64,000 nucleotides of DNA, taken from the NCBI GenBank assembly GCA_016215455.1, contig JACRJP010000003.1:66657-130656 (forward strand), read 5' to 3'. The stretch comes from Candidatus Tayloriibacteriota bacterium (GTDB lineage Bacteria; Patescibacteriota; Minisyncoccia; Phycocordibacterales; PALSA-1337). The notes under the pieces are model-generated. The model ran no database searches, was not told where the DNA came from, and worked only from the letters and a program-made list of their open reading frames with translations. Numbering within the stretch: position 1 is the stretch's first letter; each line of letters begins with the position of its first letter. Position numbers and translations under genes: made by a program. Below, piece after piece: positions 12,648 to 49,179 of the stretch.

Positions 12648-12695
12648 GGAATTATGCTTATATATAATGATTTATACATTAAGCATAACATATCC

Positions 12696-13766: not shown

Positions 13767-13905
13767 GTCTACTAGTATACCTCTAAAGATTATATTGACC
13801 AATAAATAAGACACTAATTTATCAAAATATACAAATAACCTTGATTTATATAGATTCTATGTTATATTATAGTTGTCATAAATCTTGACAGTAATCACAT
13901 ATATC

Positions 13906-14664: not shown

Positions 14665-14666
14665 CT

Positions 14667-15419: not shown

Positions 15420-15443
15420 AGATGTTTCCTTGTCCCCTATATT

Positions 15444-16523: not shown

Positions 16524-16631
16524 AGCGCTGATAATTAAATAATGTACAAAGTGTAACACGACCCTCTTTTTGGCAATAGGCATAAAATCATCAGAATTGC
16601 TGATATTTTTGGTTTGTGGTATACCTGTGAC

Positions 16632-17378: not shown

Positions 17379-17393
17379 GTATAAAAAACGAAA

Positions 17394-17412
17394 CCCCGCC
17401 AGTGTGGCGGGG
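17394..17412. terminator. Hairpin terminator (serves the minus-strand SBP7 gene; T-run on the minus strand)
   Basis: CCCCGCCAgtgTGGCGGGG, 8-bp GC stem. Reverse-complement side is followed by tttcgtttttt. Confidence 0.5.
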
Positions 17413-17480
17413 AATCTCTGAGGCCGAAGCCGATAGTGAGTACGTAGTACATCCATTTCTTTCAAAACACAACTTTCAAT

Positions 17481-18575: not shown

Positions 18576-18636
18576 ATTGTCATAAGTATATACTCATGGT
18601 ACTATATGTCCATAATACGGCGAAAAGCGAATACTT

Positions 18637-19407
18637 ATGAAAAATAATGATTTTTTAGATGTTTTAGGTCTTAAAGCAGTTCCCAAGAAAGTTTTGGTGG
18701 ATCTAGTTCAGCATGGCACTTCCAAGGTAACTGAGATCTCTTCCCGTCTCCACCTCCCTAAATCATCGGTATATGATGCCCTTTCAATACTTGTCGAAAA
18801 AAGTCTTGTAAATGAATACAGTGACGATCGCGGGAAGATGTTTGGACTGTCTGATAATGAACAACTAGCACGAGTTCATGCTGAAAAAATAGAAGAATTC
18901 AAAAAGGCACAGGCTTCCCTCCTCTCTTTCATTACAACCCATGCTCGTGAAGACAATGTAGTACAACCAAAAATTAAATTCTATTCAGGTATCATTGGTA
19001 TCAAACAAGCCTTCCGTGACATGATGTGGAATAGCAAGTACAAGGAGGCATATCTCATGTGGCCAATGCAAAATATGCTCGATAGTATCGATGAAGATTT
19101 TCTTAAGTGGCATGGCAAACAACGCTACAAATACAATGTAGTTATTTACTCTATTGAAAAACACAGCGACAGAAAATTAAAGATACGAGATCGTGAGTGG
19201 CTTGAAAGTGATCTAAAAACAAAACTCACAGAAGTCCGTTATCTTCCCAAAGGAATCGATTGGAAAATGAGTTACTGGATCTATGGTGACAAATGTCTCT
19301 TTGCCAGTGGTGATAGAGAACAAATTGCTTTCACCATTCACAGCAAAGAATTCTGCGACATCATGAAACTCATGTGGAAACAAATGTGGGTAGTGGCGAA
19401 GAAGTAA
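18637..19407 (+). CDS. TrmB-family winged-helix transcriptional regulator (copy 3)
   Basis: HTH GLKAVPKKVLVDLVQHGTSKVTEISSRLHLPKSSVYDALSILVEKSLV. 256 aa. Divergent from SBP7. Confidence 0.7.
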   Translation: MKNNDFLDVLGLKAVPKKVLVDLVQHGTSKVTEISSRLHLPKSSVYDALSILVEKSLVNEYSDDRGKMFGLSDNEQLARVHAEKIEEFKKAQASLLSFITTHAREDNVVQPKIKFYSGIIGIKQAFRDMMWNSKYKEAYLMWPMQNMLDSIDEDFLKWHGKQRYKYNVVIYSIEKHSDRKLKIRDREWLESDLKTKLTEVRYLPKGIDWKMSYWIYGDKCLFASGDREQIAFTIHSKEFCDIMKLMWKQMWVVAKK

Positions 19408-19410
19408 TAA

Positions 19411-20547
19411 TTACTTAATCTTCATCGGCGTACTGGTCGCACCATCAAAGCCCATGAGAATAACCTGAGCATCTGATCGATCACGAAATTCGTTGAAGGT
19501 GATTGTTCCAGAAGCACCATCAAATGGCGTGAATGCTGTCTTTACCTTTTCCACATCAGTAGTACCAGCTTTTTCAACTGCTCGAGCAATCATATATACA
19601 GCATCATACGCTGTATCTGCCCCAGGACCTGGTTCAGTACCATACTTTGCTTTGAAAGCATCAACGAAAACTTGTCTCGAAGGTGTGTAGATAGCGTATA
19701 TTAGGTTCTTAAGATACGGAACTGAAACCTTGGCTGTTGCACCAAGAGCCGCAACATCAACTGGGTAAAGAATGGGTGTGCCAATTTTAAGCTCACCAGA
19801 CTGCTGGAGAAAACGTTCGATAGGGCCAGAAGTAATCGCAGCAAATACTGCATCAGGCTTTGATTGCTTAATCTTACTAACATGTGTTTTGAAATCCTGA
19901 GTATCGATTGGGAAAGAAACTGGACTCACGACCTTAATTCCCTGTTCTTTTGCAAGTGAGGTAAATACTTCAATGAGAGAATTTTCCCAAGGACCGATAC
20001 TTTGAACGAGTGCTACCTTTTTGAAATTTTTACTCTTTGCATATGCGACCAATTCCTTTACAGCAATTGCATCAGACGGCCATGTTCGATAGAGATACTC
20101 ACTTTTCTTTGTAAAATCAGCAGCTCCAGCAGAGACAGTAACTGTTAAAATCTTATTCTGAGTAATGATAGGAATTACCGGTTCTGTCTGATCAGTCCAG
20201 CCAGTGAGAAGGAAATTGACCTTGTCGATTGAAATAAGTTTATTGACAGCAGAGACTGAGCCCTTTGCCTCACTATAATTGTCTTCTGTCACCACTACCA
20301 CCTGTCGGCCGAGAACACCACCATTTTGATTGATCTGGAAAGCCGCCAATTCCGCTCCTTGTTTTGAAGGTTCGCCCCATGAGGCACCGAAGCTTGAGAG
20401 CGCGAAATTAGCGCCAATTTTGATGAGTTCTTGAGTACCACCTACATCCTGTCGTGAAGTCGAACCCTTTGTTACAAAGCTGACCCCTACAACAATAATC
20501 ACCACAAGTACCACCAATCCGACGATGATTTTACCTAATTTAGTCAT
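19411..20547 (-). CDS. LivK/LivJ-family substrate-binding protein, membrane-anchored (SBP8)
   Basis: Start refined to MTKLGKIIVGLVVLVVII (ATG at 20545-20547). IKIGANFALSS..., QINQNGGVLGRQVVVVTEDN. Confidence 0.8.
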   Translation of the reverse strand: MTKLGKIIVGLVVLVVIIVVGVSFVTKGSTSRQDVGGTQELIKIGANFALSSFGASWGEPSKQGAELAAFQINQNGGVLGRQVVVVTEDNYSEAKGSVSAVNKLISIDKVNFLLTGWTDQTEPVIPIITQNKILTVTVSAGAADFTKKSEYLYRTWPSDAIAVKELVAYAKSKNFKKVALVQSIGPWENSLIEVFTSLAKEQGIKVVSPVSFPIDTQDFKTHVSKIKQSKPDAVFAAITSGPIERFLQQSGELKIGTPILYPVDVAALGATAKVSVPYLKNLIYAIYTPSRQVFVDAFKAKYGTEPGPGADTAYDAVYMIARAVEKAGTTDVEKVKTAFTPFDGASGTITFNEFRDRSDAQVILMGFDGATSTPMKIK

Positions 20548-20601
20548 ATATTTAATGTATGACCATATTCTGGGCTTAAACAAAGCACTTGTAAAGAGTT
20601 T

Positions 20602-21750
20602 CTACTCAGCCTTTACGAACTTGCCACCCCTCACAGTTTGCATCTCAAATGCATCATCAGGTGTTATCAAATAACCCTTTTGATCAAAAGAAATTCTTGA
20701 CAAAGCGGCACCCTTCATATCTTTTGTCTCAGCGATAGCGTCTCGCAAAGTCTGGCCTCCCTTCCCCTTAGTTTTTTCAAGTCCACGAGCAATAACAAAT
20801 ACAGCATCATACGCAGTTACTGCTGATGGATACTGTGGAACATGTCCATATCGTGCAGCGTATACATTTTCAAATTTCTGATACTCAGTCGAATGTTTTG
20901 GTGTTGAGAAATACGATGTCTCAAGATCACGGGCACATGTGGATAATGAGTTATAGTTACCCGCAGCTTCAGTTGCAAGAATTGGTACAGTGAGACCAAG
21001 TTCTCGTGCTTGTTTAGCAAAGACACACTGAGCAGGATCAGTTTCAACAATGAATACAGCGTCCGGATTACTTTGTCGAACCTTAGCGATAGGAGTACGA
21101 AAATCTGTAATCAATGGATTACCGAGGTCCATATCACCAATAATAGTCACACCATATTGTGGAGCATATTCTGTAATAAGATCGGCTGTGAACTTCCAAA
21201 AACCGCCATTAACCGGTCGTATGATGTATATTTTCTTTAAATTATGCTGATTGGCATATGCGAGAATAGTTCGAATTCCAACTCGATTGTCGTACCATGT
21301 TGAAAAGAAGTATGGAGCATCTCTGTCTATCTCAACATGATTAGTAGCGTCAGGCGATATTGTAGGAATTTTTGCTGCCTCTATGAGCGGAATGATCGCT
21401 TCGGTAGGCTCGTCCCACTGTGCACCAACAATTGCAACAACCTTATCGACATCTATCAATTTACTCACTACGAGTGATGCATTTTTCATCTTATCCAATG
21501 AAAGATCTCCTTCGACTAATGCAAGTTGACGACCATCAATGCCGCCTTGTGCGTTAATCTCTTCAACAGCAAGTCGTGCGCCGTTTCTTTCCTCTTCACC
21601 AGGAGCAACTCCAATACCTGTCAAAGCAGATATGCTACCTATATTAATAACAGCACCTTCAGATAGCGCAGGCTGTCGCATATATATAGCAGAAACAGCC
21701 ACTCCCAGAACAACGAGAACAAAAAGGCTTTTAATTACACGTTTCGACAT
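20602..21750 (-). CDS. LivK/LivJ-family substrate-binding protein, membrane-anchored (SBP9)
   Basis: TM anchor. INIGSISALTGIGVAPGEE, EEINAQGGIDGRQLALVEGD. Confidence 0.85.
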   Translation of the reverse strand: MSKRVIKSLFVLVVLGVAVSAIYMRQPALSEGAVINIGSISALTGIGVAPGEEERNGARLAVEEINAQGGIDGRQLALVEGDLSLDKMKNASLVVSKLIDVDKVVAIVGAQWDEPTEAIIPLIEAAKIPTISPDATNHVEIDRDAPYFFSTWYDNRVGIRTILAYANQHNLKKIYIIRPVNGGFWKFTADLITEYAPQYGVTIIGDMDLGNPLITDFRTPIAKVRQSNPDAVFIVETDPAQCVFAKQARELGLTVPILATEAAGNYNSLSTCARDLETSYFSTPKHSTEYQKFENVYAARYGHVPQYPSAVTAYDAVFVIARGLEKTKGKGGQTLRDAIAETKDMKGAALSRISFDQKGYLITPDDAFEMQTVRGGKFVKAE

Positions 21751-21838
21751 AGTGATTATATTTAATATGGTAATCCTATAATAATATGCTAATATATAAA
21801 TTAAGCAAACACTCCCTAGTAGGAGAGTAATTAATTAT

Positions 21839-22591
21839 ATGCAAACACCTTACCCGCGCATTCTCAAACAATTTGGACTCAATCCAAACGACATTAAGAT
21901 ATATAGGACTCTCTATAACCTCGGTAGATCAAAAACAGGTATTATCATACGCGAGACAGCGATCGCCAGTTCACGTGTCTACGCTTCCCTACAGAACCTT
22001 GTGCGCAAAGGCCTCGTTTCATATCAGGTTAAAAACAACATTAAATATTATCAAGCCGAACTACCTGATCAACTTATTGAGGAGGCTGAGGATAATGTCG
22101 AGGAGTTGAAGGGTTTCGCCGACAATCTTAAACTATTCCCTATTTCAAAAAATAAGCGTAACGAAACTAATACATATGAAGGAGTACACGGACTCAAGAT
22201 GGCATACGAGCAACACACCGAAAATCTTGAAAAAGGAGAGACTGTTTCGATCATCGCTTTTGTGGGAGAGGAGTATGCGTCATCACAACCTATCCGGCTT
22301 TTCTTTTCAAAAACAATAGATCGTATAATGATCGAAAAAAAATGCCACGGCAAAATGATCACTCACAAAGAAATTAAAAAGATTATCAAACGTGACCGGC
22401 CTGACAGCTCTATCTATACGATTCGACACTTATCTGAGAACTACACTCTTCCCTACACGGTTAATATTTCAAAAAAAGAAGTTGTCATGGGTGTTTGGGG
22501 CGACGAACCAACAGTATTTACTATCAGCAATCCAGTAGTGGTAAGCGCCTTCCAAAAAAACTTCGATTATCTGTGGAAAATCGCCAAATAA
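21839..22591 (+). CDS. TrmB-family winged-helix transcriptional regulator (copy 4)
   Basis: HTH GLNPNDIKIYRTLYNLGRSKTGIIIRETAIASSRVYASLQNLVRKGLV. 250 aa. Divergent from the SBP9-SBP8 pair. Confidence 0.7.
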   Translation: MQTPYPRILKQFGLNPNDIKIYRTLYNLGRSKTGIIIRETAIASSRVYASLQNLVRKGLVSYQVKNNIKYYQAELPDQLIEEAEDNVEELKGFADNLKLFPISKNKRNETNTYEGVHGLKMAYEQHTENLEKGETVSIIAFVGEEYASSQPIRLFFSKTIDRIMIEKKCHGKMITHKEIKKIIKRDRPDSSIYTIRHLSENYTLPYTVNISKKEVVMGVWGDEPTVFTISNPVVVSAFQKNFDYLWKIAK

Positions 22592-22605
22592 CAACAATAT
22601 CGAGG

Positions 22606-23271
22606 TTATACACCTACCTTGTAATATCTCCACTTGTAACCGATTGCATCAATTTCTTCAAAAGAGAGAACTCTATATCCATATCTTCCAATCATCATTT
22701 CAAAATCAGAAAAATCATCCTCACCTTTAAAATTAATATGAGTTATTGCGATATTCCCTTCTGGTGATACATAAGATTTTGCTTCTTCAAGAAATCTTTT
22801 GTGGATTTGATATTCAGGATCATAGAGTGATGATTCAATAATACCTTCAATAGGAAAGTCTGTTATGGGTAGATTTGCGATGATGAGATCGAATTTGTCC
22901 TTGGGAACATTTTCGAATACATCACTTTCGATTACTTCTACTATTTCTCCTACACCATTCCTTTGTGCATTATCTTGCGCGCATTTTACAGCATCCTTGT
23001 TGATATCAACTGCAACTACTTTTTGTGCACCCATTTTTGCTGCCCTAATAGCATGGATACCTGTACCAGTTCCTATATCAAGAACTTTTTTATTCTTCAA
23101 ATCCCCAAAGACATGATGTAACTCTATGGATGAGTGAGAAAATTTACTCTGGGGAGGAAAAACATTTTTACATGTTTGAATCTGTATACCATCAATATCA
23201 AGAATCTTGGATTCCTGATTTTTAATATCGATAAGAAAATCCTGAGTAAGTTGTGGATTAATCTTTTTCAT
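22606..23271 (-). CDS. Class I SAM-dependent methyltransferase (MTS/HemK-like small-domain type)
   Basis: VLDIGTGTGIHAIRAA SAM motif, VAVDIN motif II, DLIIANLP in place of the NPPY-type motif IV. Last gene of the coiled-coil/livH/livM operon. Confidence 0.6.
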   Translation of the reverse strand: MKKINPQLTQDFLIDIKNQESKILDIDGIQIQTCKNVFPPQSKFSHSSIELHHVFGDLKNKKVLDIGTGTGIHAIRAAKMGAQKVVAVDINKDAVKCAQDNAQRNGVGEIVEVIESDVFENVPKDKFDLIIANLPITDFPIEGIIESSLYDPEYQIHKRFLEEAKSYVSPEGNIAITHINFKGEDDFSDFEMMIGRYGYRVLSFEEIDAIGYKWRYYKVGV

Positions 23272-23306
23272 TTATTACTTAGCATAGTGCAATTTAATAA
23301 ACTTCT

Positions 23307-24173
23307 TTAAAGCTTATATTCCCCCACCAAACCTTGCGGCCGATACAACATGAGAAGAATCAAAATGACACCGTATGACACCTGGCGCATTTGAGCAGCG
23401 ATATCTGATGGGAAACCAACGAAACGGAGAATTTCTGGAAGAAGAATGAGAATGACGGCACCCAACACTGCCCCTTTATTATTCGCCAAACCTCCCATGA
23501 TGATGATAGCGAGAAGAAAGATTGATTCGTTCAGAGTAAATGTTGAAGGATCAATGAAGGTGATGTAACTTGCAAAGAGTGACCCTGCAATTGAAGCGAG
23601 CATTGCACCGATAACAAAGATTGCGAGTTTATAGAACAGAGTATTGTAACCAAATACTCGAATCGCATCTTCATCTTCACGAATAGCTTTAAGAACGCGA
23701 CCGAATGAAGATTTCACAATATACTGTGATACTCCATATACAAGAAGAAGTGCAAGTGCCGACAAAAGAAGGAACCAAATATTTTCTGAGAACGTAAAAC
23801 CAAAAAGTGAGGGTCGTGGAATGCCAGGAATACCAAGAGGGCCTCGTGTCAGTGACTGCCAATTCAAAAAGATACTGTATACGATAATGTTGAAACCGAA
23901 TGATCCGAGTGCGTAATAGTCATCTTTGAATTTCGACAAAACAAAACCAATGAGCAAACTTACCACACCTGAAATAATCATTCCAAGAATAACTGATACA
24001 AAGAAATTCATTCCTGTTGTCGTGAGAAGAATTGCTGTTGCATATGCTCCCATTCCATAGAACGCAGCCTGAGTCACTGACAACAACCCTGTCACACCCA
24101 CAATAAGATTGAGCGATAGGCCCAAGATGCCGTAGATACAGATCAGTATGGCGATGTGGATGAGATATTCCAT
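23307..24173 (-). CDS. livM: Branched-chain amino acid ABC transporter permease LivM-like
   Basis: 288-aa polytopic membrane protein of the branched-chain amino acid permease fold. Adjacent to livH. Confidence 0.8.
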   Translation of the reverse strand: MEYLIHIAILICIYGILGLSLNLIVGVTGLLSVTQAAFYGMGAYATAILLTTTGMNFFVSVILGMIISGVVSLLIGFVLSKFKDDYYALGSFGFNIIVYSIFLNWQSLTRGPLGIPGIPRPSLFGFTFSENIWFLLLSALALLLVYGVSQYIVKSSFGRVLKAIREDEDAIRVFGYNTLFYKLAIFVIGAMLASIAGSLFASYITFIDPSTFTLNESIFLLAIIIMGGLANNKGAVLGAVILILLPEILRFVGFPSDIAAQMRQVSYGVILILLMLYRPQGLVGEYKL

Positions 24174-24174
24174 A

Positions 24175-25041
24175 TTATTTCTTTAATATTCCCTGCGGCC
24201 GAACAAGAAGGAATATGATGAGTACACCGAATGCAATAGCATCTTTCCATTCTCCTGAAATTTTCCAAATACCGAAGTTCTCAACAAAACCAAGAAGGAA
24301 TGCACCAAGAACTCCACCATATATATTACCAATACCACCAATGATAGAGGCGATAACTCCCTTTAAAAGAAGTGAAAGCCCCATCGTTGGTTCAATTCCT
24401 GTATCAAATCCTACCAATATACCTGCAAGTCCCGCGATTGCTGAACCGATAAAGAACACCTTACCGATAATTGATCGGGTATTGATCCCTACAATCTTTG
24501 AAACTTCCTCATCATCTCCTACCGCCTTCACCGCCTTACCAAACATCGTGTACTTGAGAGTAAGTGCCATAGCGAACATAAGCACGAGACCAGTGATGAG
24601 AATAATAAGTTGGACCTGCGTAATGACTCCACCAGCTATTTCAAATACTCGTTCATCTCCTGCACTTCGAGAAAGAGTTTGAAACTGACTTGTAAAAAGG
24701 ATTGCGAGCACGGACTGTAGTGCAGTAAAAGCACCGAGAGCAGCTACGAGTAGCACCATACTTGAGGACTTTCTTTCACGAAGTGGTGCATAGATAGAAC
24801 GATAGATAAAGAAACCAATGAGTCCTGCTATAACCATACCAAGCGGAATAGCGATCCAGAGACTAAGACCAAGTGTTTTATAAAAATAGAAGACTGCATA
24901 GCCACCCACTGCTGCAAGTGCGCCGTATCCAAGATCAAAGAATTTTGCAGTACCGTAGATGAGATTAAAACCAAGTGCCACCATCGTATAAATCGCTCCT
25001 GCAATAATACTATTGACGATAAGTTGTGGGACAATGTCCAT
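24175..25041 (-). CDS. livH: Branched-chain amino acid ABC transporter permease LivH-like
   Basis: 288-aa polytopic permease. Gene abuts livM with a 1-nt gap (stop at 24175, livM start at 24173). Conserved permease loop region. Confidence 0.8.
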   Translation of the reverse strand: MDIVPQLIVNSIIAGAIYTMVALGFNLIYGTAKFFDLGYGALAAVGGYAVFYFYKTLGLSLWIAIPLGMVIAGLIGFFIYRSIYAPLRERKSSSMVLLVAALGAFTALQSVLAILFTSQFQTLSRSAGDERVFEIAGGVITQVQLIILITGLVLMFAMALTLKYTMFGKAVKAVGDDEEVSKIVGINTRSIIGKVFFIGSAIAGLAGILVGFDTGIEPTMGLSLLLKGVIASIIGGIGNIYGGVLGAFLLGFVENFGIWKISGEWKDAIAFGVLIIFLLVRPQGILKK

Positions 25042-25069
25042 GGCCTACATTATATGCCCCCGGAGGATT

Positions 25070-25411
25070 TTAGGAAAGTTTATGTTCGAGTTTACGCACC
25101 CTCTTTTCTAAAGCGCGATGATCTTCATATTTTACTCGTGTAATAGACAAATCGTCGATCCTTCGTTCAAGGCCATCAAAACGATAAATTGTATATTCTT
25201 TAAATTCAACAAATTCTTTATAGAAATTGTCGATTCTACCATTCGTATCTTCAAATCCTCGTGCAACCATCAAAGCAAACTCTTCAAAACGAGCATCGAG
25301 TTTAGTATCGATAAGAACATCAATTTTCTTTTCGAATCTAATTTCAAAATCATCGAAAAGACCCTTGATAAGGGTGATGTCTGCTGAATTGAGTGTTGGC
25401 TGAATATTCAT
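25070..25411 (-). CDS. Hypothetical coiled-coil protein, paralog B (first copy at 6591-6917)
   Basis: Start refined to MNIQPTLNSADITLIKG (ATG at 25409-25411). C-terminal V.YEDHRALEKRVRKLEHK mirrors V.YVDHKTLSKRVDKLEEK of paralog A. Lies 29 nt upstream of livH. Confidence 0.5.
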   Translation of the reverse strand: MNIQPTLNSADITLIKGLFDDFEIRFEKKIDVLIDTKLDARFEEFALMVARGFEDTNGRIDNFYKEFVEFKEYTIYRFDGLERRIDDLSITRVKYEDHRALEKRVRKLEHKLS

Positions 25412-25508
25412 ACTTTCTATTGTGCTGAGTATAAAATACTTCCCTACAAAAGACCATAAAATTCTGTTCAAAAAATCTCAAAAACTTTATCAGAATTTCA
25501 TACAACAA

Positions 25509-25541
25509 AAAAGACCCTGTTATTGAGGGTCTTTTTTGTTG
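25509..25541. terminator. Bidirectional hairpin terminator
   Basis: aaaaaAGACCCTgttattgAGGGTCTttttt, separating SBP10 from the coiled-coil/livHM operon. Confidence 0.6.
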
Positions 25542-25553
25542 TATGGATGATAA

Positions 25554-26669
25554 TTATTTTAAATCAACAAGACTACCATTAACAATTTGTCGAACTCGAT
25601 AAGCTGGATTCTTTACATCACCATATTGATCAAACTGAATATGCCCTGAAACCCCTTGAAAATCACTCGCTCGTACAGCGTCTGAGAGTTTATCAGGATC
25701 ACTCACACCAACCTGTTTAATCGCAGCAAAAACTGCCTGAGCTGCATCATATGCTTGAGGTGCACATGTTGGAACTTGATCTCCTCCAGTCTTAGCAAGT
25801 AATTTTTTAGCGAAATCAGGAGTTGGATTTGCAACAGATTCAGTAAATAGGATATCTATTGCTTTAGGAAGGTTTGCGAGGAATTTTGTGTCTCCAAATG
25901 TTTCTGAAGCAAACAATTTTGCTGTTATTCCAAGATCTTTGATCTGTTTAACAACGACAGTTGCACCTTCTGGATAAAGAGCGAAGTAAATATAGTCAGG
26001 TTTTGTATTCTTAATCTTAGTTAACTGTGTTTTATAATCTCGAACATCTGCAGTAACACCCTCTTCTGCTACCACCGTACCACCAAGTTCCTTAAATCGA
26101 TTAATGAAGACCTCCTTAAGTCCAGACCCATAATCACTTATATGGTAGATTAGAGCTACCTTACGTGCACCTAGATCATTATAAAGGTATTCAGCCGCGT
26201 ATCTTCCTTGAAGAGCATCTGACGGATACGTTCGGAAAAAGAATTTACCTGAATTACTCAATGGAGGGGCTGACGAACAGTATGAAACAACAATCTTCTT
26301 TGTCTCCATTGCTGATTTTACAAAGGCTGAGGTCTCACCTGAACACAAACCACCAATAACTCCACTCACCTTATCGATATTGAATAATTTTTGTGCTGCA
26401 TTAGTTGCTGGCAAAGGAGAACATTTTCCATCCTCATAGATAACCTCGACTTTTTGACCATTGAGACCGCCCGCAGCATTTACCTCATCGGCAGCGACCT
26501 CTACTGCTGCTCGAGAAGCAAGACCTAGAGATGACGCATCCCCAGTTAGAGGACCGACAAACCCAATCTTAATCGGACTCGTTTCTTTCTCTGTACGTGT
26601 TCCAAAAGCGAGCACGAGTATCACTACAAGAACGATACTACCTACCACCCATTTGCCGAATTTAGACAT
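25554..26669 (-). CDS. LivK/LivJ-family substrate-binding protein, membrane-anchored (SBP10)
   Basis: TM anchor. IKIGFVGPLTGDASSLG, EVNAAGGLNGQKVEVIYEDGKC. Confidence 0.85.
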   Translation of the reverse strand: MSKFGKWVVGSIVLVVILVLAFGTRTEKETSPIKIGFVGPLTGDASSLGLASRAAVEVAADEVNAAGGLNGQKVEVIYEDGKCSPLPATNAAQKLFNIDKVSGVIGGLCSGETSAFVKSAMETKKIVVSYCSSAPPLSNSGKFFFRTYPSDALQGRYAAEYLYNDLGARKVALIYHISDYGSGLKEVFINRFKELGGTVVAEEGVTADVRDYKTQLTKIKNTKPDYIYFALYPEGATVVVKQIKDLGITAKLFASETFGDTKFLANLPKAIDILFTESVANPTPDFAKKLLAKTGGDQVPTCAPQAYDAAQAVFAAIKQVGVSDPDKLSDAVRASDFQGVSGHIQFDQYGDVKNPAYRVRQIVNGSLVDLK

Positions 26670-26709
26670 AATAATATCCTTATTTGTAATAAGGATATTA
26701 TATACCTCT

Positions 26710-27810
26710 CTATTGTATTGTCACTGACTTACCATCTTGAATTATTCTCAGCACCGCCTTCGACACCACCAGTCCATCAGCATCAATCTTGAGTCCATTT
26801 CCCAAAGCTCCATTATAGTTATTAATTCTAAGGAGAGCTTGAGTAATGTCTGAAGTATTTGGTAACGACTTCTTTTCAATAGATTCTGTTGCTTCGACTA
26901 TGATGCCTAAAATATCATATCCATTTGGGGTTGCTATCGAAGGATTCTTTTGAAACTTGTCACTATACATTTTTGTAAATCCTGAAGTCGGATCAGCAGC
27001 ATTCACGTACCACAAATTCTCAAACATTCCAGGATTATCAGATAACTCAAACGATTCAATCGACGTCAAAGGAATTTTTACCCCCGCTTCACGAATCTGT
27101 TTTGTCAGTACTTCAAGTTCTGGAGAAAACATCATGAGGACAGTATAGTCCGCACCCGAATTCTTTAACTGACTTACCTGAGTTCTAAAATCTTTTGTTC
27201 CGAACGACGTGACACTCTCGTACACAATCTCAATATCAGTACCTGATATTTGTTTCTTGAGTTCCTTAATCATTTCAGTAATACCAGAAATCTGCTGACC
27301 AAAAACTGCAATCTTCTTGATTTGACGTTTTTCTGCTTCCTTCACAAAAAGACCGATCTCTTCAACTGGAGGAGTCCAATTAATGAAATTGTAATCTCCT
27401 TTTGCAATATTCGGATCAGAGGCAATACCAAAATGAATAATTTTATTTTTCTCAGCAAGTGGATTAACCGCAGATCCTGCCGCAGAAGCAAAAGTCACAA
27501 CAGCCTGTACTTTGTCATAGTCCACAAGTTTTTGAAAAGCTGAAACTGTTCGTGCAGGAACAAATCCATCATCTTCAAAAACTGCTTCATATGTATACTT
27601 TGTATTCTTCTTTTGAGCTTCCTCGACAGCAAGAAGAACTGCATTTTTTACACCTTCTCCCAAGAAAGCAACATTACCTGATAATGGGAGAATATATCCG
27701 ATTTTAATAACTGGCTTCTCTGGTGTATCTACTGATTTTTCTTTATATATCACACTACCTACAACCACGATTACGATAATACTAACAAGGGTAATAATTT
27801 TATATTTCAT
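26710..27810 (-). CDS. LivK/LivJ-family substrate-binding protein, membrane-anchored (SBP11)
   Basis: TM anchor. IKIGYILPLSGNVAFLGEG. Periplasmic binding fold. Confidence 0.8.
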   Translation of the reverse strand: MKYKIITLVSIIVIVVVGSVIYKEKSVDTPEKPVIKIGYILPLSGNVAFLGEGVKNAVLLAVEEAQKKNTKYTYEAVFEDDGFVPARTVSAFQKLVDYDKVQAVVTFASAAGSAVNPLAEKNKIIHFGIASDPNIAKGDYNFINWTPPVEEIGLFVKEAEKRQIKKIAVFGQQISGITEMIKELKKQISGTDIEIVYESVTSFGTKDFRTQVSQLKNSGADYTVLMMFSPELEVLTKQIREAGVKIPLTSIESFELSDNPGMFENLWYVNAADPTSGFTKMYSDKFQKNPSIATPNGYDILGIIVEATESIEKKSLPNTSDITQALLRINNYNGALGNGLKIDADGLVVSKAVLRIIQDGKSVTIQ

Positions 27811-27964
27811 ATATTTATACTTACCCTAAAATTATAGGACAATTATTAATTATACATGTCAAATATATCTATACACACATCATTATACGGCTCTATATAT
27901 AGATATAATACATATTCTGTATATTTTGTTCGTCATAAGTAACAAAAAATGCTACGATACGCAT

Positions 27965-28768
27965 ATGATCTCCCATGAAGATTTAGTCCACAAAATCAAT
28001 AAAACGGGACTTACCGACAAAGAATCTTTTGTCTATAGCTATCTCATTGAAACAGGAGGTGGGTACCCCTCAAAAATATCTGAAGTAACAAAATTAAACC
28101 GAAGTACGGTATATAAGATTCTTACTTCCCTTGCTGTTAAAGGATTGGTAACTGAAATCGAAAAAAGAAAGAAGCTATTCTTTCAACCAGAATCTCCCGA
28201 AAAACTTCTTCGCTTTGCAGAAATGAAGAAACAACGTGCGTCCGAAGATCTTGAGTACGCTAAAAAAGTATTTCCTGAACTCGAAGCTCTCTTTTCTCTT
28301 TCTCCAGGTAAACCTGTTGTTAGATTCTTTCAAGACAAAAGTGGAATCATGAGTATTTTTGAGGATCATATAAAAACCACTAAGGCGTATGAAATGGTGG
28401 GCTTTGCAAACATAGGAGGACTCGAAGATATATTTCCTAAAGACTTTTTTAGAAAATATGTAGCAACAAAAGAAAAATTAAAAATTACTACTCGAGGCAT
28501 CGTACAGGATACAACACAGGATCGCACCTTTAACGATCGAATGTATACAACTGTGCAAGCTGCATATAAGTTACAACTACGATATGTACCAAGTAAATAC
28601 ATTCCCCTACAAGGAGAACTTATTTGCTACGCTGAAAATAAAGTTTCAATTGTTAACAAAACTGAATCTGGCTTTGTTGGTATTATTATCGAAGACAAAC
28701 CTATTCACGAAATGGTTCGCAAAATATTTGAGCTCGCATGGATCGGAGCAGAAAAGTTTCAAAAGTAA
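27965..28768 (+). CDS. TrmB-family winged-helix transcriptional regulator (copy 5)
   Basis: Start refined to MISHEDLV. HTH GLTDKESFVYSYLIETGGGYPSKISEVTKLNRSTVYKILTSLAVKGLV. Divergent from the SBP11-SBP10 pair. Confidence 0.7.
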   Translation: MISHEDLVHKINKTGLTDKESFVYSYLIETGGGYPSKISEVTKLNRSTVYKILTSLAVKGLVTEIEKRKKLFFQPESPEKLLRFAEMKKQRASEDLEYAKKVFPELEALFSLSPGKPVVRFFQDKSGIMSIFEDHIKTTKAYEMVGFANIGGLEDIFPKDFFRKYVATKEKLKITTRGIVQDTTQDRTFNDRMYTTVQAAYKLQLRYVPSKYIPLQGELICYAENKVSIVNKTESGFVGIIIEDKPIHEMVRKIFELAWIGAEKFQK

Positions 28769-28776
28769 GCAGAGAC

Positions 28777-29400
28777 TTACCCTGCGTTGTATACACTCAT
28801 CGCCTTCTCACGACCTTCAAATACGATAGTTTCAATAGCTTCTACTGCGCGTTTAATTACTTTTTTGAGTTCTGCTTCCTCAACAGACTTAAATGGACCA
28901 AGAATAAACTTCTCTACCTCTTTATCACCATGAGGAACTTTTGTTTTTCCTGATGCTGTAGTTGGACTCACCCCAACTCGAATACGGACAAAGCCTTCAG
29001 TCTTTGCCGCTTTAATAACTGACTCTACACCATTATGACCTCCTGAACTTCGATTAAATGAAACTTTGAGTGAACCAAGAGGAATATGAAAATCATCATA
29101 GATAACAATCAACTTCTCTGCTTTCTTTGGACTTACCTTTCCCATAGTCGTTACAAGTGGTCCAATAGCCTTCCCTGAGTTGTTCATGAACGTTTCAGGC
29201 ATCATGAGAAGCAAAGATTCTTGTTGTTTTCCTTTTTTAAGATCAACTTTTGTTGTAAGAGCCTGAACTTTTTTTGTAGTAGCAAAATCTTCTGCTCCGT
29301 GAGCCTTCGCAAAAGCCTCAAGAACCATTCTTCCGACATTATGTCGTGTATTTTTATATTCTTCTCCTGGATTCCCGAGTCCTGCGATGATGTATGACAT
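28777..29400 (-). CDS. pth: Peptidyl-tRNA hydrolase
   Basis: Start refined to MSYIIAGLGNPGEEYKNTRHNVG (canonical Pth N-terminal motif). ~207 aa. Confidence 0.9.
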   Translation of the reverse strand: MSYIIAGLGNPGEEYKNTRHNVGRMVLEAFAKAHGAEDFATTKKVQALTTKVDLKKGKQQESLLLMMPETFMNNSGKAIGPLVTTMGKVSPKKAEKLIVIYDDFHIPLGSLKVSFNRSSGGHNGVESVIKAAKTEGFVRIRVGVSPTTASGKTKVPHGDKEVEKFILGPFKSVEEAELKKVIKRAVEAIETIVFEGREKAMSVYNAG

Positions 29401-29476
29401 GTACAAATAATACACAAGCAGCACGAAACGTACAACTGTCTTGTGTCAAAGGCCTTCGACGTATTACAATTGTGCC

Positions 29477-30061
29477 ATGACACCACTTGCTCCAGAAAAA
29501 AAAGAATCGTATCGAGAATTAATTATCACTATTCTCATAATCATCGCGATTCTCTTTCCAATACGTTATTACATAGTTCAACCATTCATTGTAAACGGAG
29601 CTTCAATGGATCCAACATTTACAACAGGACAATATCTTATCGTTGATGAACTCTCTTTCCGTTTTCATAAGCCTGAACGTGGTCAGGTTATTATTCTCAA
29701 GTATCCAAGAGACCCAAGTACTTACTTTATTAAAAGAATTGTTGGCTTACCGAATGACAACATTATGATCAAAGACGGTAAGGTAACAATTACGAACGCA
29801 GAATATCCCGAAGGATTTGAGCTCGAAGAAAACTACGTACAGATCAATCACATCTCTCACGAAACATACCAAATCACCCTTGGTCCCACCGAATACTTCG
29901 TCATGGGTGACAACAGATCACAGAGTTCTGATTCGAGAAGTTGGGGACCGCTTGATCGTGAATTAATTGTAGGACGACCACTACTCCGCCTATTACCACT
30001 AAGTAAGATAGACATATTTCCAGGAACTATCACGAACGACCATGAAAACAACCAAAAGTAG
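29477..30061 (+). CDS. lepB: Signal peptidase I
   Basis: TM helix then catalytic Ser motif GASMDPTF, Lys box IKRIVGLPND, and YFVMGDNRSQSSDSR box. Confidence 0.9.
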   Translation: MTPLAPEKKESYRELIITILIIIAILFPIRYYIVQPFIVNGASMDPTFTTGQYLIVDELSFRFHKPERGQVIILKYPRDPSTYFIKRIVGLPNDNIMIKDGKVTITNAEYPEGFELEENYVQINHISHETYQITLGPTEYFVMGDNRSQSSDSRSWGPLDRELIVGRPLLRLLPLSKIDIFPGTITNDHENNQK

Positions 30062-31292
30062 CCCGAAAAAAGAAAGCAAGAATAAAAAAGATCAAGGTAC
30101 TATCAATCACAATCATCTCGACAAAATTGGCGAGATAGCTTTGTACTATGGTTGTAGTCCTCACGCTCCAATCGAAATCAAAAAAACTGATATTGATACT
30201 GCAAAGGAATTCCTTGATCACGATTATATTGATGATAATGGCAAGGGTGACCGACTTCCTCTCCATGTCGAAGAAAAAGTTGCCCTATTACGTACATACA
30301 CTGAAGAAGAGATGCATACACTTCCTCAACCTGTGATGTTGTATTTCAAATCTGCTTTCAAAAATCCTTTACTCAAAAAAACAAGTGACTATCCTCGCTA
30401 CTGTGATATTGAAATCTTGGGTAATAGCAAAAGTGTAGCTGAAGCAACACTCATTCAAATCGCTCGAGCAATTCTCGCAGAAGAAGGCTATGAAAATATC
30501 TGTATTGATATCAATAGTATTGGTGATAAGGATTCAATGGCACGCTTTACTCGAGATCTCACAAACTACTACCGTAAACACATCAATGATCTCCACACAG
30601 AATGTCGTCAACTTTTGAAGAAAGATCCTTTTGAACTTCTTGCATGTAAAAATGACCGCTGCAAACAATTGAATGAAAATGCACCTCAATCAATGGGGTT
30701 TCTTTCGGAATCGAGTCGTGCACACTTCCAGGAAGTCCTCGAATATCTTGAAGCTCTCGATATCCCCTACCGTATCAATAACGGTCTCATTGGTAATCGA
30801 AAATATTGTTCAGAAACTATTTTTGAAATTATTAATCTTGACCACGAAACAAAACCGAAAGAACAACGGACCCTTGCTATCGGAGTTCGTTATGACGGAC
30901 TCTCAAAAAAGATGGAATTCAAACGAGAAATTCCAGGAGTTGGTCTTTCAATACTTATTAAAGGTAAACGCGAAGAACTTCGCAAAGAAGTAAAGAAAAC
31001 AAAAATCCCTCAAGTGTATTTTATTCAACTTGGCTTTGAAGCAAAACTCGCAAGTCTTAAGGTAATTGAAATTCTTCGTAAGGCAAAGATCCCTGTATAT
31101 CAGTCACTTCCAAAAGATAAACTTGGGGCTCAAGTATCTATGGCTGAAAAAAATCAAACCCCCTTCACTATCATCATTGGTAAAAAAGAAGCTATGGAAG
31201 GTACCGCAATTGTCCGAGATACCGCTACTCGCTCTCAGGAAACTATCAAAATTGAGGATTTGGCGGTGTACCTCAAGAAAGCTTCAGAATAA
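30042..31292 (+). CDS. Histidyl-tRNA synthetase-like protein with divergent catalytic motifs (HisS/HisZ family)
   Basis: Clear class-II HisRS architecture. Blocks align to HisRS: DINSIG, ESSRAHFQEVLEYLEALDIPYRIN, motif-3-like GVRYDGL. Class-II anticodon-binding domain present (PFTIIIGKKEAMEGTAIVRD). Motif 2 (FRHERPQKGRYRQF in E. coli) is replaced by FKNPLLKKTSDYPRYCDI. The His-binding loop RGLDYY is replaced by GNRKYC. Confidence 0.6.
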   Translation: MKTTKSSPKKESKNKKDQGTINHNHLDKIGEIALYYGCSPHAPIEIKKTDIDTAKEFLDHDYIDDNGKGDRLPLHVEEKVALLRTYTEEEMHTLPQPVMLYFKSAFKNPLLKKTSDYPRYCDIEILGNSKSVAEATLIQIARAILAEEGYENICIDINSIGDKDSMARFTRDLTNYYRKHINDLHTECRQLLKKDPFELLACKNDRCKQLNENAPQSMGFLSESSRAHFQEVLEYLEALDIPYRINNGLIGNRKYCSETIFEIINLDHETKPKEQRTLAIGVRYDGLSKKMEFKREIPGVGLSILIKGKREELRKEVKKTKIPQVYFIQLGFEAKLASLKVIEILRKAKIPVYQSLPKDKLGAQVSMAEKNQTPFTIIIGKKEAMEGTAIVRDTATRSQETIKIEDLAVYLKKASE

Positions 31293-31368: not shown

Positions 31369-31614
31369 ATGATAAACGTAGAAATCACAAGAAATCCCAA
31401 CGAAAATGGCATCAGCGTCATCCGACGTTTTACCAAGAAAGTGCAGAGTTCAGGAGTTCTCCCACGCGTACGAAGTATTCGTTACAGTGACCGAACTCTC
31501 TCTCCTTACAAAGTAAAGATGAAGACTTTGAAGACAATCAACCGAAAGGCTGAAATCGCAGAGCTCATTAAGATGGGTAAGATGGCCGAAAAGCCTTCAC
31601 GTTACTCAAAGTAA
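31369..31614 (+). CDS. rpsU: 30S ribosomal protein S21
   Basis: 81 aa. V.V..NE....IRRF.KKV...GVL.RVRS.RY pattern typical of bS21. Confidence 0.75.
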   Translation: MINVEITRNPNENGISVIRRFTKKVQSSGVLPRVRSIRYSDRTLSPYKVKMKTLKTINRKAEIAELIKMGKMAEKPSRYSK

Positions 31615-31630: not shown

Positions 31631-32020
31631 GTGAAGACGGAACCTACGTTCACCCTCACTAATGTAACAAAAGCCAAGCTTCCCCGCTTGGCTTTTGCCG
31701 ATATGAAAGACGCCATCCTTGGTCCTGACTACACTCTCGACTTCTCTATTGTTGATACAGAAACAATTCATCACCTTAATCGCACAACTCGAGGTATTGA
31801 TGCTCCGACTGATATTTTAAGTTTTCCTTTGAGTGACACTGAAGGAGAAATATATCTTAATCCTGAATATACTGAAATTGAAGCAAAGAAATTTGACCGA
31901 GATTATGATAATTTTGTTGGTTTTTTATTTATCCACGGACTTGTTCATTTGAAAGGATTCGATCATGGTAGTACAATGGAACGTATAGAGGCCAAATTCC
32001 GCAAACAGTTTGGTATTTAG
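31631..32020 (+). CDS. ybeY: rRNA maturation endoribonuclease YbeY
   Basis: TDILSFP motif and zinc-binding HGLVHLKGFDH motif. GTG start. Confidence 0.85.
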   Translation: MKTEPTFTLTNVTKAKLPRLAFADMKDAILGPDYTLDFSIVDTETIHHLNRTTRGIDAPTDILSFPLSDTEGEIYLNPEYTEIEAKKFDRDYDNFVGFLFIHGLVHLKGFDHGSTMERIEAKFRKQFGI

Positions 32021-32046: not shown

Positions 32047-33228
32047 ATGTCCCGACCAATAATTACAGGTATCGATATCGGTACCTATCATGTTAAAGTC
32101 GTCATTGCACACCCTGCAACGAAGTCTTCATCAGCACCTGTCATCATAGGAACAGGTGTTTCAGAATCTCGTGGTATTCGACATGGGTACATTACGAGTG
32201 TTCATGATATCGGCCGCAGTATCCGTGCTGCTCTTGATGAAGCAGAACGAAAAGCTAAAGTAAAAGTAAAGCGAGCCTTCATTTCTATTGGTGGTATTGG
32301 TCTCGGAAGTATTACTTCACAAGGAGCAACGATTGTTACTCGTGCTGATAATGAAATTACCCAACTCGATGTCAAAAAAGCTCACGAACAAAGTGAGCAT
32401 GACATACAAGCTTCTGCGATTCTCAATCGTAAAATCATTCACTCTGTTCCATTGGAATATAAGATTGATGGGAAAAAAGTGCTTGGAAAACCAGAAGGTA
32501 TGAAAGCTCAGCGTCTTGAAGTAAAGATGCTATTCATTACTTGTCTCGAACATCACTTGAATGATCTCATTCAAGCTGTTGAAGAAGCTGGTGTTGAAGT
32601 TGAAGATGTCATGGCATCTCCTCTCGCAGCAAGTCTTGTAACTCTCACAAAATCTCAAAAAATTGCAGGCTGTGTTCTTGCAAACATTGGAGCTGAAACT
32701 GTTTCAATTGCAGTATTTGAAAATAATATTCCAATTTCACTTGAAGTATTCCCTATCGGTTCTACCGATATTACAAACGACATTGCCCTTGGTCTCAAAG
32801 TCCCTCTTGAAGAAGCTGAACAAATTAAAATTGGTGCAATTACTGGTACGTCATATCCTCGAAAGAAACTCGAAGAAATTATCTATGCTCGTCTCTCAGA
32901 TATATTTGATCTCATCGAAGCTCACCTCAAAAAGATTGGCCGAAGTGGTCTTCTTCCAGCAGGTATTATCATCACCGGTGGTGGTGCAGGTCTAGGTAGT
33001 ATTGAAGACATGGCAAAGATTTCTCTTCGACTCCCTTCACGTATAGGAAGTGTCATGAGCTCTCAAGACTCTCGAGAAAGCTTTAAAGACGCTACATGGG
33101 CCGTAGCATATGGTTTGTGCCTCTTTGGTATCAGTGCTGATGAAGGACCCTCTCTTGATAGCGGTGCCCGTCTTGTTCGCACAACCAAAAACAATATCAT
33201 TGCTTGGTTGAAACAGTTTCTCCCGTAA
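32047..33228 (+). CDS. ftsA: Cell division protein FtsA
   Basis: Actin-like ATPase. N-terminal ITGIDIGTYHVKVVIAH and GGGAGLGSIEDMA motifs. 393 aa. Lies upstream of ftsZ. Confidence 0.9.
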   Translation: MSRPIITGIDIGTYHVKVVIAHPATKSSSAPVIIGTGVSESRGIRHGYITSVHDIGRSIRAALDEAERKAKVKVKRAFISIGGIGLGSITSQGATIVTRADNEITQLDVKKAHEQSEHDIQASAILNRKIIHSVPLEYKIDGKKVLGKPEGMKAQRLEVKMLFITCLEHHLNDLIQAVEEAGVEVEDVMASPLAASLVTLTKSQKIAGCVLANIGAETVSIAVFENNIPISLEVFPIGSTDITNDIALGLKVPLEEAEQIKIGAITGTSYPRKKLEEIIYARLSDIFDLIEAHLKKIGRSGLLPAGIIITGGGAGLGSIEDMAKISLRLPSRIGSVMSSQDSRESFKDATWAVAYGLCLFGISADEGPSLDSGARLVRTTKNNIIAWLKQFLP

Positions 33229-34332: not shown

Positions 34333-35553
34333 ATGCCCAACATCACCCCAGAAATAGAAGCGTTCGCACGAATCAAAGTCCTCGGAGTCGGAGGTTCCGG
34401 AGGAAATGCTGTGAATCACATGGTCAATTCCAAAGTAAAAGGAGTTGATTTCATTACGATTAACACAGATGCTCAGGATCTTCACCGATCTCTCGCAAAG
34501 AAAAAGATTCATATTGGTAAAAACCTCACTCGAGGTCTTGGTACTGGTATGAATCCAGAGATGGGACGTCGTGCTGCTGAAGAAACTCGTGAAGAAATTC
34601 AGGATGCTATTAAAGGTGCGGACATGGTCTTCGTTGCATGTGGTCTTGGTGGTGGAACTGGAAGTGGAACAAGTCCTCTCATTGCTCGTACTGCAAAAGA
34701 ACTCGGTGCTCTCACTGTTGGTGTTGTTACTCGACCATTCTTCTTCGAAGGTCAACAGCGATCAAAGATTGCTGAAGCAGCTCTTGATGAACTTCGAAAA
34801 GAAGTTGATGCAATTATCGTTATTCCCAACGACAGACTTCTCTCAATCATTGATAAGAACACAACAATGAAGAATGCCTTCGCTATGTGTGACGAAATAC
34901 TTCGTCAGGCAGTTGAAGGTATTTCTGATCTCATCACTACTCCAGGTATCATCAACATCGACTTCGCCGACATTCGCGCAGTCATGGAAAGTGCAGGTTC
35001 AGCCCTCATGGGTATTGGAAGTGCTTCAGGAGAAAACCGTGCTATGGAAGCTGCAAAAATGGCTATCAATTCCCCTCTTCTCGATCTTTCAATCAACGGA
35101 GCAAAGGGTGTACTCTTCTCTATTGCTGGAGGTGAAGATCTCACTATGTTCGAAATCCAAGATGCTGCTAAGGTTATTACAGAATCAATCGATCCTCAGG
35201 CAAAGGTTATCTTCGGTACAATCCGCGACGAGAAGCTTAAGAAAAACGAAATTCGTATTACAGTCATTGCTGCAGGTTTCCCAGACAGTTCTCTTAATCA
35301 ATCAACTAACGGTGTCGCAGCGGCTCCCGCAACTCAATCTGCACCACAAGCAAAGAAACCTTTTCAGTCATCTGATGTTGCACCAGCACGAGAAGAAAAG
35401 AAGAGTATTTTCAATAGTGTAACTCCTCCAACACCAGCTCCTCAACCTATCAAAGACGTGAAGGTAGAAGAAAAAAAAGACACTTCTCGTAACGATGATG
35501 ACGATGATTGGGGTGCAGTTCCAGCGTTTCTCCGACGTTCAAAGATTAAGTAA
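34333..35553 (+). CDS. ftsZ: Cell division GTPase FtsZ
   Basis: Tubulin signature GGGTGSG, T7 loop NIDFADI. Pro/Ala-rich linker and conserved C-terminal peptide (DDDDWGAVPAFLRR). Confidence 0.95.
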   Translation: MPNITPEIEAFARIKVLGVGGSGGNAVNHMVNSKVKGVDFITINTDAQDLHRSLAKKKIHIGKNLTRGLGTGMNPEMGRRAAEETREEIQDAIKGADMVFVACGLGGGTGSGTSPLIARTAKELGALTVGVVTRPFFFEGQQRSKIAEAALDELRKEVDAIIVIPNDRLLSIIDKNTTMKNAFAMCDEILRQAVEGISDLITTPGIINIDFADIRAVMESAGSALMGIGSASGENRAMEAAKMAINSPLLDLSINGAKGVLFSIAGGEDLTMFEIQDAAKVITESIDPQAKVIFGTIRDEKLKKNEIRITVIAAGFPDSSLNQSTNGVAAAPATQSAPQAKKPFQSSDVAPAREEKKSIFNSVTPPTPAPQPIKDVKVEEKKDTSRNDDDDDWGAVPAFLRRSKIK

Positions 35554-46632: not shown

Positions 46633-46711
46633 AAGAAGTGTAGGTAGAATGAGCCAAATAACACTACAGCGAAACCTACCACAAACAGCTAGTAAATGCT
46701 ACTATCTTTTC

Positions 46712-49151: not shown

Positions 49152-49179
49152 GAACTGAGTGGAAGGGGTCAAAAACCCA

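Follow-up and report, generated by a model that had tools for sequence, protein, structure and literature searches.

A catalytically degenerate relative of histidyl-tRNA synthetase at the hisS locus of Candidatus Taylorbacteria

A HisRS-like gene between lepB and rpsU

The DNA analysed here, referred to below as the window, is a stretch of 64,000 nucleotides from a Candidatus Tayloriibacteriota bacterium (contig JACRJP010000003.1, positions 66,657 to 130,656). [quoted passage not shown] Our analysis indicated that this gene is a vertical, in-place descendant of the hisS gene of Paceibacteria and not an additional copy next to an ordinary hisS at this locus, and that its product is a HisRS by descent that falls short on four of the enzyme's defining sequence features. 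An identical protein is deposited at NCBI as MBI5126508.1 ('hypothetical protein HZA80_01965') on a 190,626-bp contig of Candidatus Taylorbacteria. The overlap between the lepB and HisRS-like reading frames suggests that the two genes are translationally coupled. The listed lepB ORF begins with a TTG codon 16 nt from the divergent pth start, and the real start is probably further downstream.

The first-pass annotation, made from the sequence alone, had proposed that the protein aligns block by block with class II HisRS, and this was borne out by the match to the NCBIfam HisRS model TIGR00442 (E 2.6e-49), by the HMMER match of residues 65-413 to S. aureus HisRS 1qe0 (E 1.3e-36) and by an AlphaFold2 model computed from an alignment of 150 family sequences (predicted local distance difference test, pLDDT, 91.9; predicted template modelling score, pTM, 0.91). 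This model displayed the three-part HisRS fold of a class IIa core, an insertion domain and a C-terminal anticodon-binding domain, and its top 50 Foldseek matches in the PDB were all HisRS structures over ~410 aligned columns, the first being 4rdx (the T. thermophilus HisRS-tRNAHis complex), with 1adj, 4e51 and 1qe0 also among the best. The whole-protein TIGR00442 score, 168.3 bits, lay below the equivalog cutoff of 286.75 bits. In Pfam searches PF03129 gave a solid match (residues 324-413, E 2e-13), which upholds the earlier description of the anticodon-binding domain as complete, tRNA-synt_His (PF13393) was marginal and no other domain was found; canonical relatives carry PF13393, PF00587 and PF03129, while the precomputed annotation of the window protein has PF03129 only. 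Database names for homologs differ in the same manner, JGI using 'histidyl-tRNA synthetase' and NCBI naming them after the C-terminal domain only.

Loss of catalytic residues and retention of anticodon readers

Motif substitutions were read from HMMER and MAFFT alignments. Both upheld the earlier claims that the motif-2 arginines and the histidine-binding RGLDYY segment had been replaced, so that careful alignment did not restore the catalytic residues. The motif-2 consensus FR.E..Q.GR.RQF corresponds in the window protein to F106-K-N-P-L-L-K-K-T-S-D-Y-P-R-Y120, which has zero arginines at the three canonical positions; the motif-2 Arg position falls on N108 in the alignment and on K107 in the register of the first-pass annotation. 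The motif-2 arginines of the canonical enzyme serve the ATP alpha-phosphate and the G-1 phosphate, and Gln and Glu residues line its histidine pocket. In T. thermophilus (Tth) numbering, R112, R120, R122 and Q126 align with N108, T114, D116 and Y120, and each was retained in <16% of degenerate representatives, among which the loop also differed in length and sequence. RGLDYY is replaced by G251-N-R-K-Y-C256, the catalytic Arg of this HisA motif being present in only 2% of degenerate representatives, and LRPEGT by LHVEEK (residues 74-79). The HisB Arg283 was found as Arg in 146 of 150 family representatives. Motif 3 had been described as retained, but only its Gly-rich strand (GVGLS) is there; the E-R pair reads K307-G308, the invariant Arg, which serves the ATP gamma-phosphate, is lost, and the basic residues near this position vary within the Taylorbacteria clade.

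A wider comparison used the 153 columns that were invariant (at least 95%) in 209 canonical Paceibacteria HisRS and scored them in 137 degenerate sequences, with <30% retention classed as lost and at least 80% as kept. By these thresholds 52 columns were lost, 55 partly kept and 46 kept. Lost positions (Tth numbering) included the N-terminal GMxD motif; R79, G82, T83 and A84; F111, R112, P116, Q117, G119, R120, R122 and Q126 of motif 2; R259, G260 and Y264 of HisA; G308, E310 and R311 of motif 3; and the basic insertion-domain residues R172, R197, R204 and K209. They take in contacts to ATP, histidine, G-1 and the acceptor stem. Kept columns clustered in the structural core and the anticodon-binding domain, and at the residues by which motif 1 contributes to the dimer interface (A33, Y36, G37 and F38).

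In the TtHisRS-tRNAHis structure the G-1 phosphate is held by R115 and R122, the G-1 pocket is the 70'-DRGGR-74' loop contributed by the other subunit, and the anticodon is read by the side chains of E388 (G34), K397 (G36) and Q404 (U35) (PMC4357726). The segment of the window protein equivalent to the DRGGR loop is acidic, variable and of low model confidence. Each of the anticodon-reader positions G380, E383, R392 and Q399 was retained in at least 98% of degenerate representatives, the anticodon-binding domain has the same net charge (+4) as in canonical relatives and the motif-2 loop is still basic. The net charge of the insertion domain dropped from +3 in canonical to ~0 in degenerate sequences, and the positive charge of the G-1 loop was also lost. 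Zero new residues were conserved family-wide in the former pocket among the degenerate sequences; its segments differ in sequence between subclades, yet are invariant inside the Taylorbacteria clade.

Canonical Paceibacteria HisRS (for example cluster representative P0158, or positions 10001-11335 of locus L086 and 10001-11293 of L088) have, within the insertion domain and close to it, seven conserved cysteines in the pattern C-R-P ... CxxC ... C-x4-C ... CxxC, which suggests one or two putative zinc sites; a zinc site is not known to have been described for HisRS. Three of the seven are Ser in the degenerate family, and the H-x2-C ... C-x4-C set of the window protein is possibly a putative zinc site left over from this larger cluster.

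Table 1. Positions in the window of the HisRS-like gene, its motifs and domains, its conserved neighbours and other features (residue numbers refer to the window protein)
Feature	Position	Strand	Description
HisRS-like ORF	30042..31292	+	416 residues; ATG start; catalytically degenerate positional ortholog of hisS
N-terminal tail	30042..30101	+	residues 1-20; Lys-rich, poorly conserved, without canonical GMxD (alignment); pLDDT 51-70
LRPEGT histidine-binding segment, degenerate	30255..30278	+	L72-P-L-H-V-E-E-K79; Glu77 kept; Gly to Glu78; Thr to Lys79
Motif 2, degenerate	30345..30419	+	residues 102-126, FKSAFKNPLLKKTSDYPRYCDIEIL; three canonical Arg and Gln lost; loop still basic
Cys/His set in insertion domain	30594..30662	+	H185-x2-C188 ... 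C202-x4-C207; invariant in Taylorbacteria clade
HisA motif, degenerate	30786..30809	+	L249-I-G-N-R-K-Y-C256 against LVRGLDYY; catalytic Arg to Gly251
HisB motif, retained	30876..30899	+	A279-I-G-V-R-Y-D-G286; GGRYD is GVRYD (281-285)
Motif 3	30930..30971	+	strand PGVGLS kept; E-R pair to K307-G308; invariant Arg lost (alignment)
Anticodon-binding domain, class IIa	31011..31280	+	residues 324-413; complete; PF03129; net charge +4
Anticodon readers	31179..31238	+	G380, E383, R392, Q399 equal Tth G385, E388, K397, Q404; contact G34, G36, U35
pth	28777..29424	-	peptidyl-tRNA hydrolase; divergent upstream neighbour in conserved locus
lepB	29441..30061	+	signal peptidase I; directly upstream; overlaps HisRS-like start by 20 nt
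rpsU	31369-31614	+	conserved downstream neighbour
ybeY	31631-32020	+	conserved downstream neighbour
ftsA	32047-33228	+	conserved downstream neighbour
ftsZ	34333-35553		after ftsA
S1-domain gene	5289-6509		
Peripla_BP_6 block	8225-27825 plus 27926-28768	- (8225-27825)	eleven paralogous genes (Liv-type amino-acid-binding) in ~20 kb
TsaD homolog	46520-47890		456 residues; best TsaD match starts at residue 160
GC-rich patch	47964-50484		GC 0.50 against ~0.40 in rest of window
RNase P RNA gene	63457-63824	-	bacterial class A; full-length match, 149.7 bits

Orthology with canonical hisS

A HMMER scan of 1.84 billion cluster representatives returned 487 clusters at E <1e-30, and the catalytic motifs were absent in 147 of the top 150 representatives (34-80% identity). 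The three exceptions, P0158, P0190 and P0242, are canonical, 35-46% identical to the window protein in a trimmed alignment, and have an anticodon-binding-domain consensus nearly the same as that of the window protein. With P0158 and P0190 as queries, canonical proteins named 'histidine--tRNA ligase' were retrieved in their thousands, their sources being Candidatus Yonathbacteria, Azambacteria, Pacebacteria, Paceibacterota and groups related to these; a motif-by-motif check of the P0158 list found every motif intact in 119 further listed matches. Homologs of the window protein itself, among the best 120 of the matches listed, were ~60-86% identical and all ~410 residues long, and those with a named source organism were all from Patescibacteria.

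The canonical genes have the same neighbourhood as the window gene, namely pth on the minus strand followed by lepB, hisS, rpsU, ybeY, ftsA, ftsZ and trxB, and in several canonical loci the shared order extends upstream to T4SS-pilin, SBP, methyltransferase, gyrA and S1 genes. The run of small T4SS-pilin genes with SBP_bac_1, a methyltransferase and gyrA was seen at 7530-9786 in L084 (left of the window), at 1-1246 in L093 and in one further canonical locus; its conservation in canonical-bearing relatives indicates shared synteny well beyond the hisS slot. The degenerate gene occupied the lepB-rpsU slot in 83/83 Taylorbacteria-clade loci and in the divergent P0138 (42% identity). GTDB was scanned at one genome per species with canonical motif patterns. 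This gave more than 600 matching stretches, which were then ranked by comparison with a 'repaired' window protein. The best 80 of these species representatives all held canonical genes, lepB lying directly upstream in 74 of the 75 whose upstream sequence was long enough to judge (in the one exception it is 2 kb upstream, with rpsU downstream), and none of the 80 had a second HisRS-like gene within 10 kb of the canonical gene. Overall, the slot was filled by 84 degenerate and 89 canonical Paceibacteria-type genes, with no locus carrying both, which makes the window gene the positional ortholog of hisS. The earlier suggestion of a pseudo-synthetase paralog thus stands in its first half, as the catalytic Arg and most histidine and ATP contacts are gone, but not in its second, as the gene sits in the ancestral hisS slot.

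Two further observations concern these loci. In L023, L028, L035, L051, L052, L060, L069, L078 and L079 rpsU lies 0.55-1.75 kb downstream of the HisRS-like gene, against ~40-350 nt in the others, pointing to extra sequence or genes inserted into an otherwise fixed cluster. The Paceibacteria-type lepB-hisS-rpsU-ybeY order was also found in GTDB representative records titled 'uncultured Candidatus Saccharibacteria bacterium' (L095, L106, L111-L113, L119, L121-L124 and many more, from TPA assemblies), where the label is probably generic or wrong.

Selection on and history of the degenerate family

The degenerate gene was present as an intact ORF of ~410 residues in thousands of sequences. Pairwise ratios of non-synonymous to synonymous substitution (dN/dS) between close relatives were 0.02-0.11, whether for the catalytic-like part or for the anticodon-binding domain, with dS often saturated, indicating that the gene is functional and not decaying. 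Within the Taylorbacteria clade more than 100 columns were invariant, the remodelled 'active-site' segments included. The HisRS-like gene evolved faster than its neighbours; in L090, for example, FtsZ was 77% identical to that of the window and the HisRS-like protein 42%.

Several derived states that canonical sequences lack or seldom show are shared among the degenerate sequences, including G82 to E (70%), R259 to G (62%) and three Cys to Ser (72-80%), and in a neighbour-joining (NJ) tree the degenerate sequences formed one long-branched radiation beside a short-branched canonical group. A single ancient loss is the simplest reading of these two results, which suggests that the degenerate form arose once.

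A probable pseudo-synthetase and the charging of tRNA-His

We infer that aminoacylation activity has been lost and that the protein binds RNA and is probably still dimeric. The explanation that we favour, and hold to be moderately probable, is a pseudo-synthetase that still binds tRNA-His while histidylation is carried out by a replacement HisRS encoded elsewhere. In this scheme hisS would have turned into a pseudo-enzyme in place, in one large subclade that includes Candidatus Taylorbacteria. The window protein would neither form histidyl-adenylate nor dock the G-1/CCA end of tRNA-His; it would act without catalysis, binding tRNA-His in an anticodon-specific manner, or else an RNA mimicking its anticodon loop, with contact made through the GUG-reading C-terminal domain and the basic motif-2 loop, and might serve as a sensor, chaperone or adaptor. 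Histidylation would fall to another enzyme, most plausibly a horizontally acquired HisRS.

Histidine made up 1.8-2.0% of predicted proteins in degenerate-bearing organisms and 1.7% in canonical-bearing relatives, and with such normal use some agent must charge tRNA-His in the former. A horizontally acquired HisRS of another type, located elsewhere in the genome, is most plausibly the default expectation; at least one account of bacteria in the candidate phyla radiation (CPR) reports archaeal-derived TyrRS and TrpRS genes (PMC5370408). No tRNA-His gene that would show G-1 and C73 was present in any retrieved locus. The window does hold an RNase P RNA gene, which is relevant here because cleavage by RNase P sets the G-1 end of bacterial tRNA-His.

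Several points weigh against this explanation. No second HisRS was found in the 64-kb window by phmmer on six-frame ORFs of at least 80 residues, where the window protein served as a query alongside two canonical HisRS of CPR bacteria and two HisRS from the PDB, nor was any hisS present in the ~17 kb beyond the window ends (L084, L085). Searches therefore covered ~81 kb of this genome, and the replacement enzyme is deduced from necessity. Likewise, a tblastn search of 974 kb flanking 83 degenerate genes, made with the HisRS of S. aureus and of T. thermophilus, detected no second homolog, no canonical match was named Taylorbacteria among the top 120 matches listed, and no contig with both a canonical and a degenerate gene was found among the top 120 or 80 matches listed, which is a weak test. 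As 0/89 Paceibacteria-type canonical genes lay outside the lepB slot, a close vertical canonical paralog elsewhere is unlikely, and this candidate was rejected. On the side of the protein, the Gly-Gly G-1 pocket and the acceptor-stem contacts are gone, so that any tRNA binding would rest on the anticodon-binding domain and the basic motif-2 loop; RNA binding and dimerisation are themselves predictions from sequence. Finally, the NJ tree behind a single origin is exposed to long-branch attraction.

Alternatively, the clade may encode no competent HisRS at all, the dead ortholog being its sole hisS-type gene. We regard this as unlikely, although it accords with the absence of a second HisRS from all sequence searched, with canonical genes never having occurred outside the slot and with normal histidine codon use. 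His-tRNAHis would in that event need a source without described precedent in free-standing bacteria, either a host-supplied enzyme or charged tRNA, or a novel catalytic route involving the anticodon-binding shell.

Alternative explanations

Among other roles for the protein, a two-gene HisRS is unlikely but fares best. The window protein would here be the non-catalytic, tRNA-anticodon-binding subunit, paired with a separately encoded catalytic subunit. The PheRS beta subunit, which combines a dead class II core with tRNA-binding modules, offers a model for such an arrangement, and the window family has kept motif-1 A33, Y36, G37 and F38 along with the anticodon readers while losing its catalytic residues. 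The two functions are also separable, as the catalytic domain of the E. coli enzyme alone is reported to keep ~0.6% activity (PMC4357726). However, no candidate partner occurred in any of ~90 degenerate-bearing loci, no short catalytic-domain-only HisRS surfaced in any search, and the dimer interface of a foreign replacement enzyme would probably not match.

An RNA-binding regulator is quite improbable. Such a protein would bind an anticodon-like stem-loop in messenger RNA (mRNA), for instance that of its own lepB-rpsU-ybeY-ftsAZ cluster, and tune expression to tRNA-His. Conserved anticodon readers and the very stable operon context fit this role, and one aminoacyl-tRNA synthetase is reported, in at least one source, to autoregulate translation and to bind mRNA at a site that is a putative mimic of the anticodon (PMC6542539). 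The same operon context is ancestral to canonical hisS, though, and is thus uninformative about a new role. Rfam found nothing near the HisRS-like gene, no search aimed at conserved RNA elements having been made, and little room is left between the genes (16 nt upstream of lepB and 76 nt before rpsU).

That the protein is still the sole HisRS of the cell, with a radically remodelled active site, we consider very unlikely. The gene occupies the hisS slot and is under strong purifying selection, its catalytic-like domain included; no other HisRS was seen in the window or the degenerate-gene flanks, His codons are used normally, and the residues of the remodelled pocket do not vary inside the Taylorbacteria clade. 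The first-pass annotation had allowed for such a highly atypical enzyme. Against it, the three arginines that bind ATP or stabilise the transition state are gone together with most histidine and ATP contacts, and the former pocket is not conserved family-wide. Pocket sequence and motif-2 loop length vary by subclade, which would be unexpected for one fixed reaction, and the G-1 and acceptor-stem contacts are lost too. We know of no active class II synthetase that lacks both the motif-2 and the motif-3 Arg.

The first-pass annotation had also raised a HisZ-like protein. HisZ, which serves short-form ATP phosphoribosyltransferase as its regulatory subunit, is the best-known bacterial example of a HisRS relative without catalytic activity, and the window protein, which is predicted from its motifs to lack aminoacylation activity, resembles it to that extent and gave a weak match to TIGR00443 (33.5 bits). 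This score is far under the cutoff of 271.65, and at E<=0.01 the family profile matched only HisRS structures and no HisZ chain. Typical HisZ has no functional anticodon-binding domain and works with HisG as partner, whereas the window protein has the full domain with its anticodon readers. None of the neighbourhood gene tables listed a histidine-biosynthesis gene, the window gene is an ortholog of hisS and not hisZ, and Patescibacteria are generally without amino-acid biosynthesis. The HisZ role is exceedingly improbable and was rejected, as scores, domain content and genomic context speak against it.

Decay of a gene without function, which its faster evolution than its neighbours might suggest, has a negligible probability and was refuted by the selection data, the intact ORF, the clade-invariant columns and the confident fold.

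Comparison with known systems

Canonical Paceibacteria hisS, represented by P0158, Ca. Yonathbacteria GCA_001823545.1 (MHUV01000006.1) and GCA_016180525.1 (JACPBB010000002.1), lies in the same slot (lepB, hisS, rpsU, ybeY) and encodes a protein that is 36-46% identical to the window protein and shares its class II core, its insertion domain and its HGTP anticodon-binding domain. The window protein differs in being ~30 residues shorter, faster-evolving and under the TIGR00442 cutoff. It has also lost the catalytic residues of GMxD, LRPEGT, motif 2, HisA and motif 3, as well as the G-1 pocket, the contacts to the acceptor stem and some of the Cys cluster.

In likely mode of working, the closest known system is probably the HisRS-like pseudoenzyme domain of GCN2, an analogy that rests on shared losses and retentions. 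This domain is catalytic-null, keeps both the catalytic-like and the anticodon-binding domains, retains the HisB GGRYD motif with a diverged HisA and is thought to bind, not charge, tRNA (PMC11363354). It forms part of an eIF2-alpha kinase that also has pseudokinase and C-terminal domains, whereas the window protein is stand-alone, bacterial and 416 residues long. The GCN2 anticodon-binding domain is without decoding side chains and senses many uncharged tRNAs, unlike the window protein, in which the tRNA-His readers are the best-conserved residues and which derives, at the original locus, from the hisS of the organism itself. A specific sequence relationship to the GCN2 domain was not detectable in the family profile search.

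Other non-enzymes derived from class II synthetases include the catalytic-like module of PheRS beta, the DNA polymerase gamma accessory subunit and insect SLIMP. These have lost signature residues and reuse the core for binding nucleic acids or partners, with other parent synthetases and other partners, and to our knowledge none is an in-place ortholog of the cell's own housekeeping synthetase. In the literature that we searched, no description of a HisRS-like pseudoenzyme in Patescibacteria was found.

Other features of the window

The block of Peripla_BP_6 paralogs adjoins a TrmB-family regulator and sits between the S1-domain gene and pth. In related genomes the distance from S1 to pth is only ~0.1-1 kb, so the block looks like a lineage-specific expansion or insertion beside the dead hisS. 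The GC-rich patch contains two long minus-strand ORFs (360 and 384 residues) and an overlapping plus-strand ORF, none with a Pfam match, and could be foreign DNA or a lineage-specific gene pair. The N-terminal extension of ~160 residues on the TsaD homolog may be a fusion, perhaps to a TsaB-like module, or a mis-called start.

Significance

Few housekeeping enzymes are as conserved as the aminoacyl-tRNA synthetases, and hisS serves as a standard phylogenomic marker, yet a large and environmentally widespread bacterial clade carries at the hisS locus a version that is catalytically dead but strongly conserved. A synthetase-derived pseudoenzyme that replaces its own parent housekeeping gene, in place and clade-wide, is unusual. 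One practical consequence is that, under the JGI label 'histidyl-tRNA synthetase', metabolic reconstructions count a HisRS that is almost certainly inactive. The HisRS-like pseudoenzyme of GCN2 may have in this protein a stand-alone counterpart from bacteria, one that has kept tRNA-His-specific anticodon readers, and the protein offers a simple system in which to study what a non-charging synthetase shell does. For these reduced-genome Patescibacteria, likely episymbionts according to the literature, much turns on how tRNA-His is charged. If by a horizontally acquired HisRS, the locus would offer a clear-cut example of displacement and subsequent repurposing; otherwise the situation would be far more unusual.

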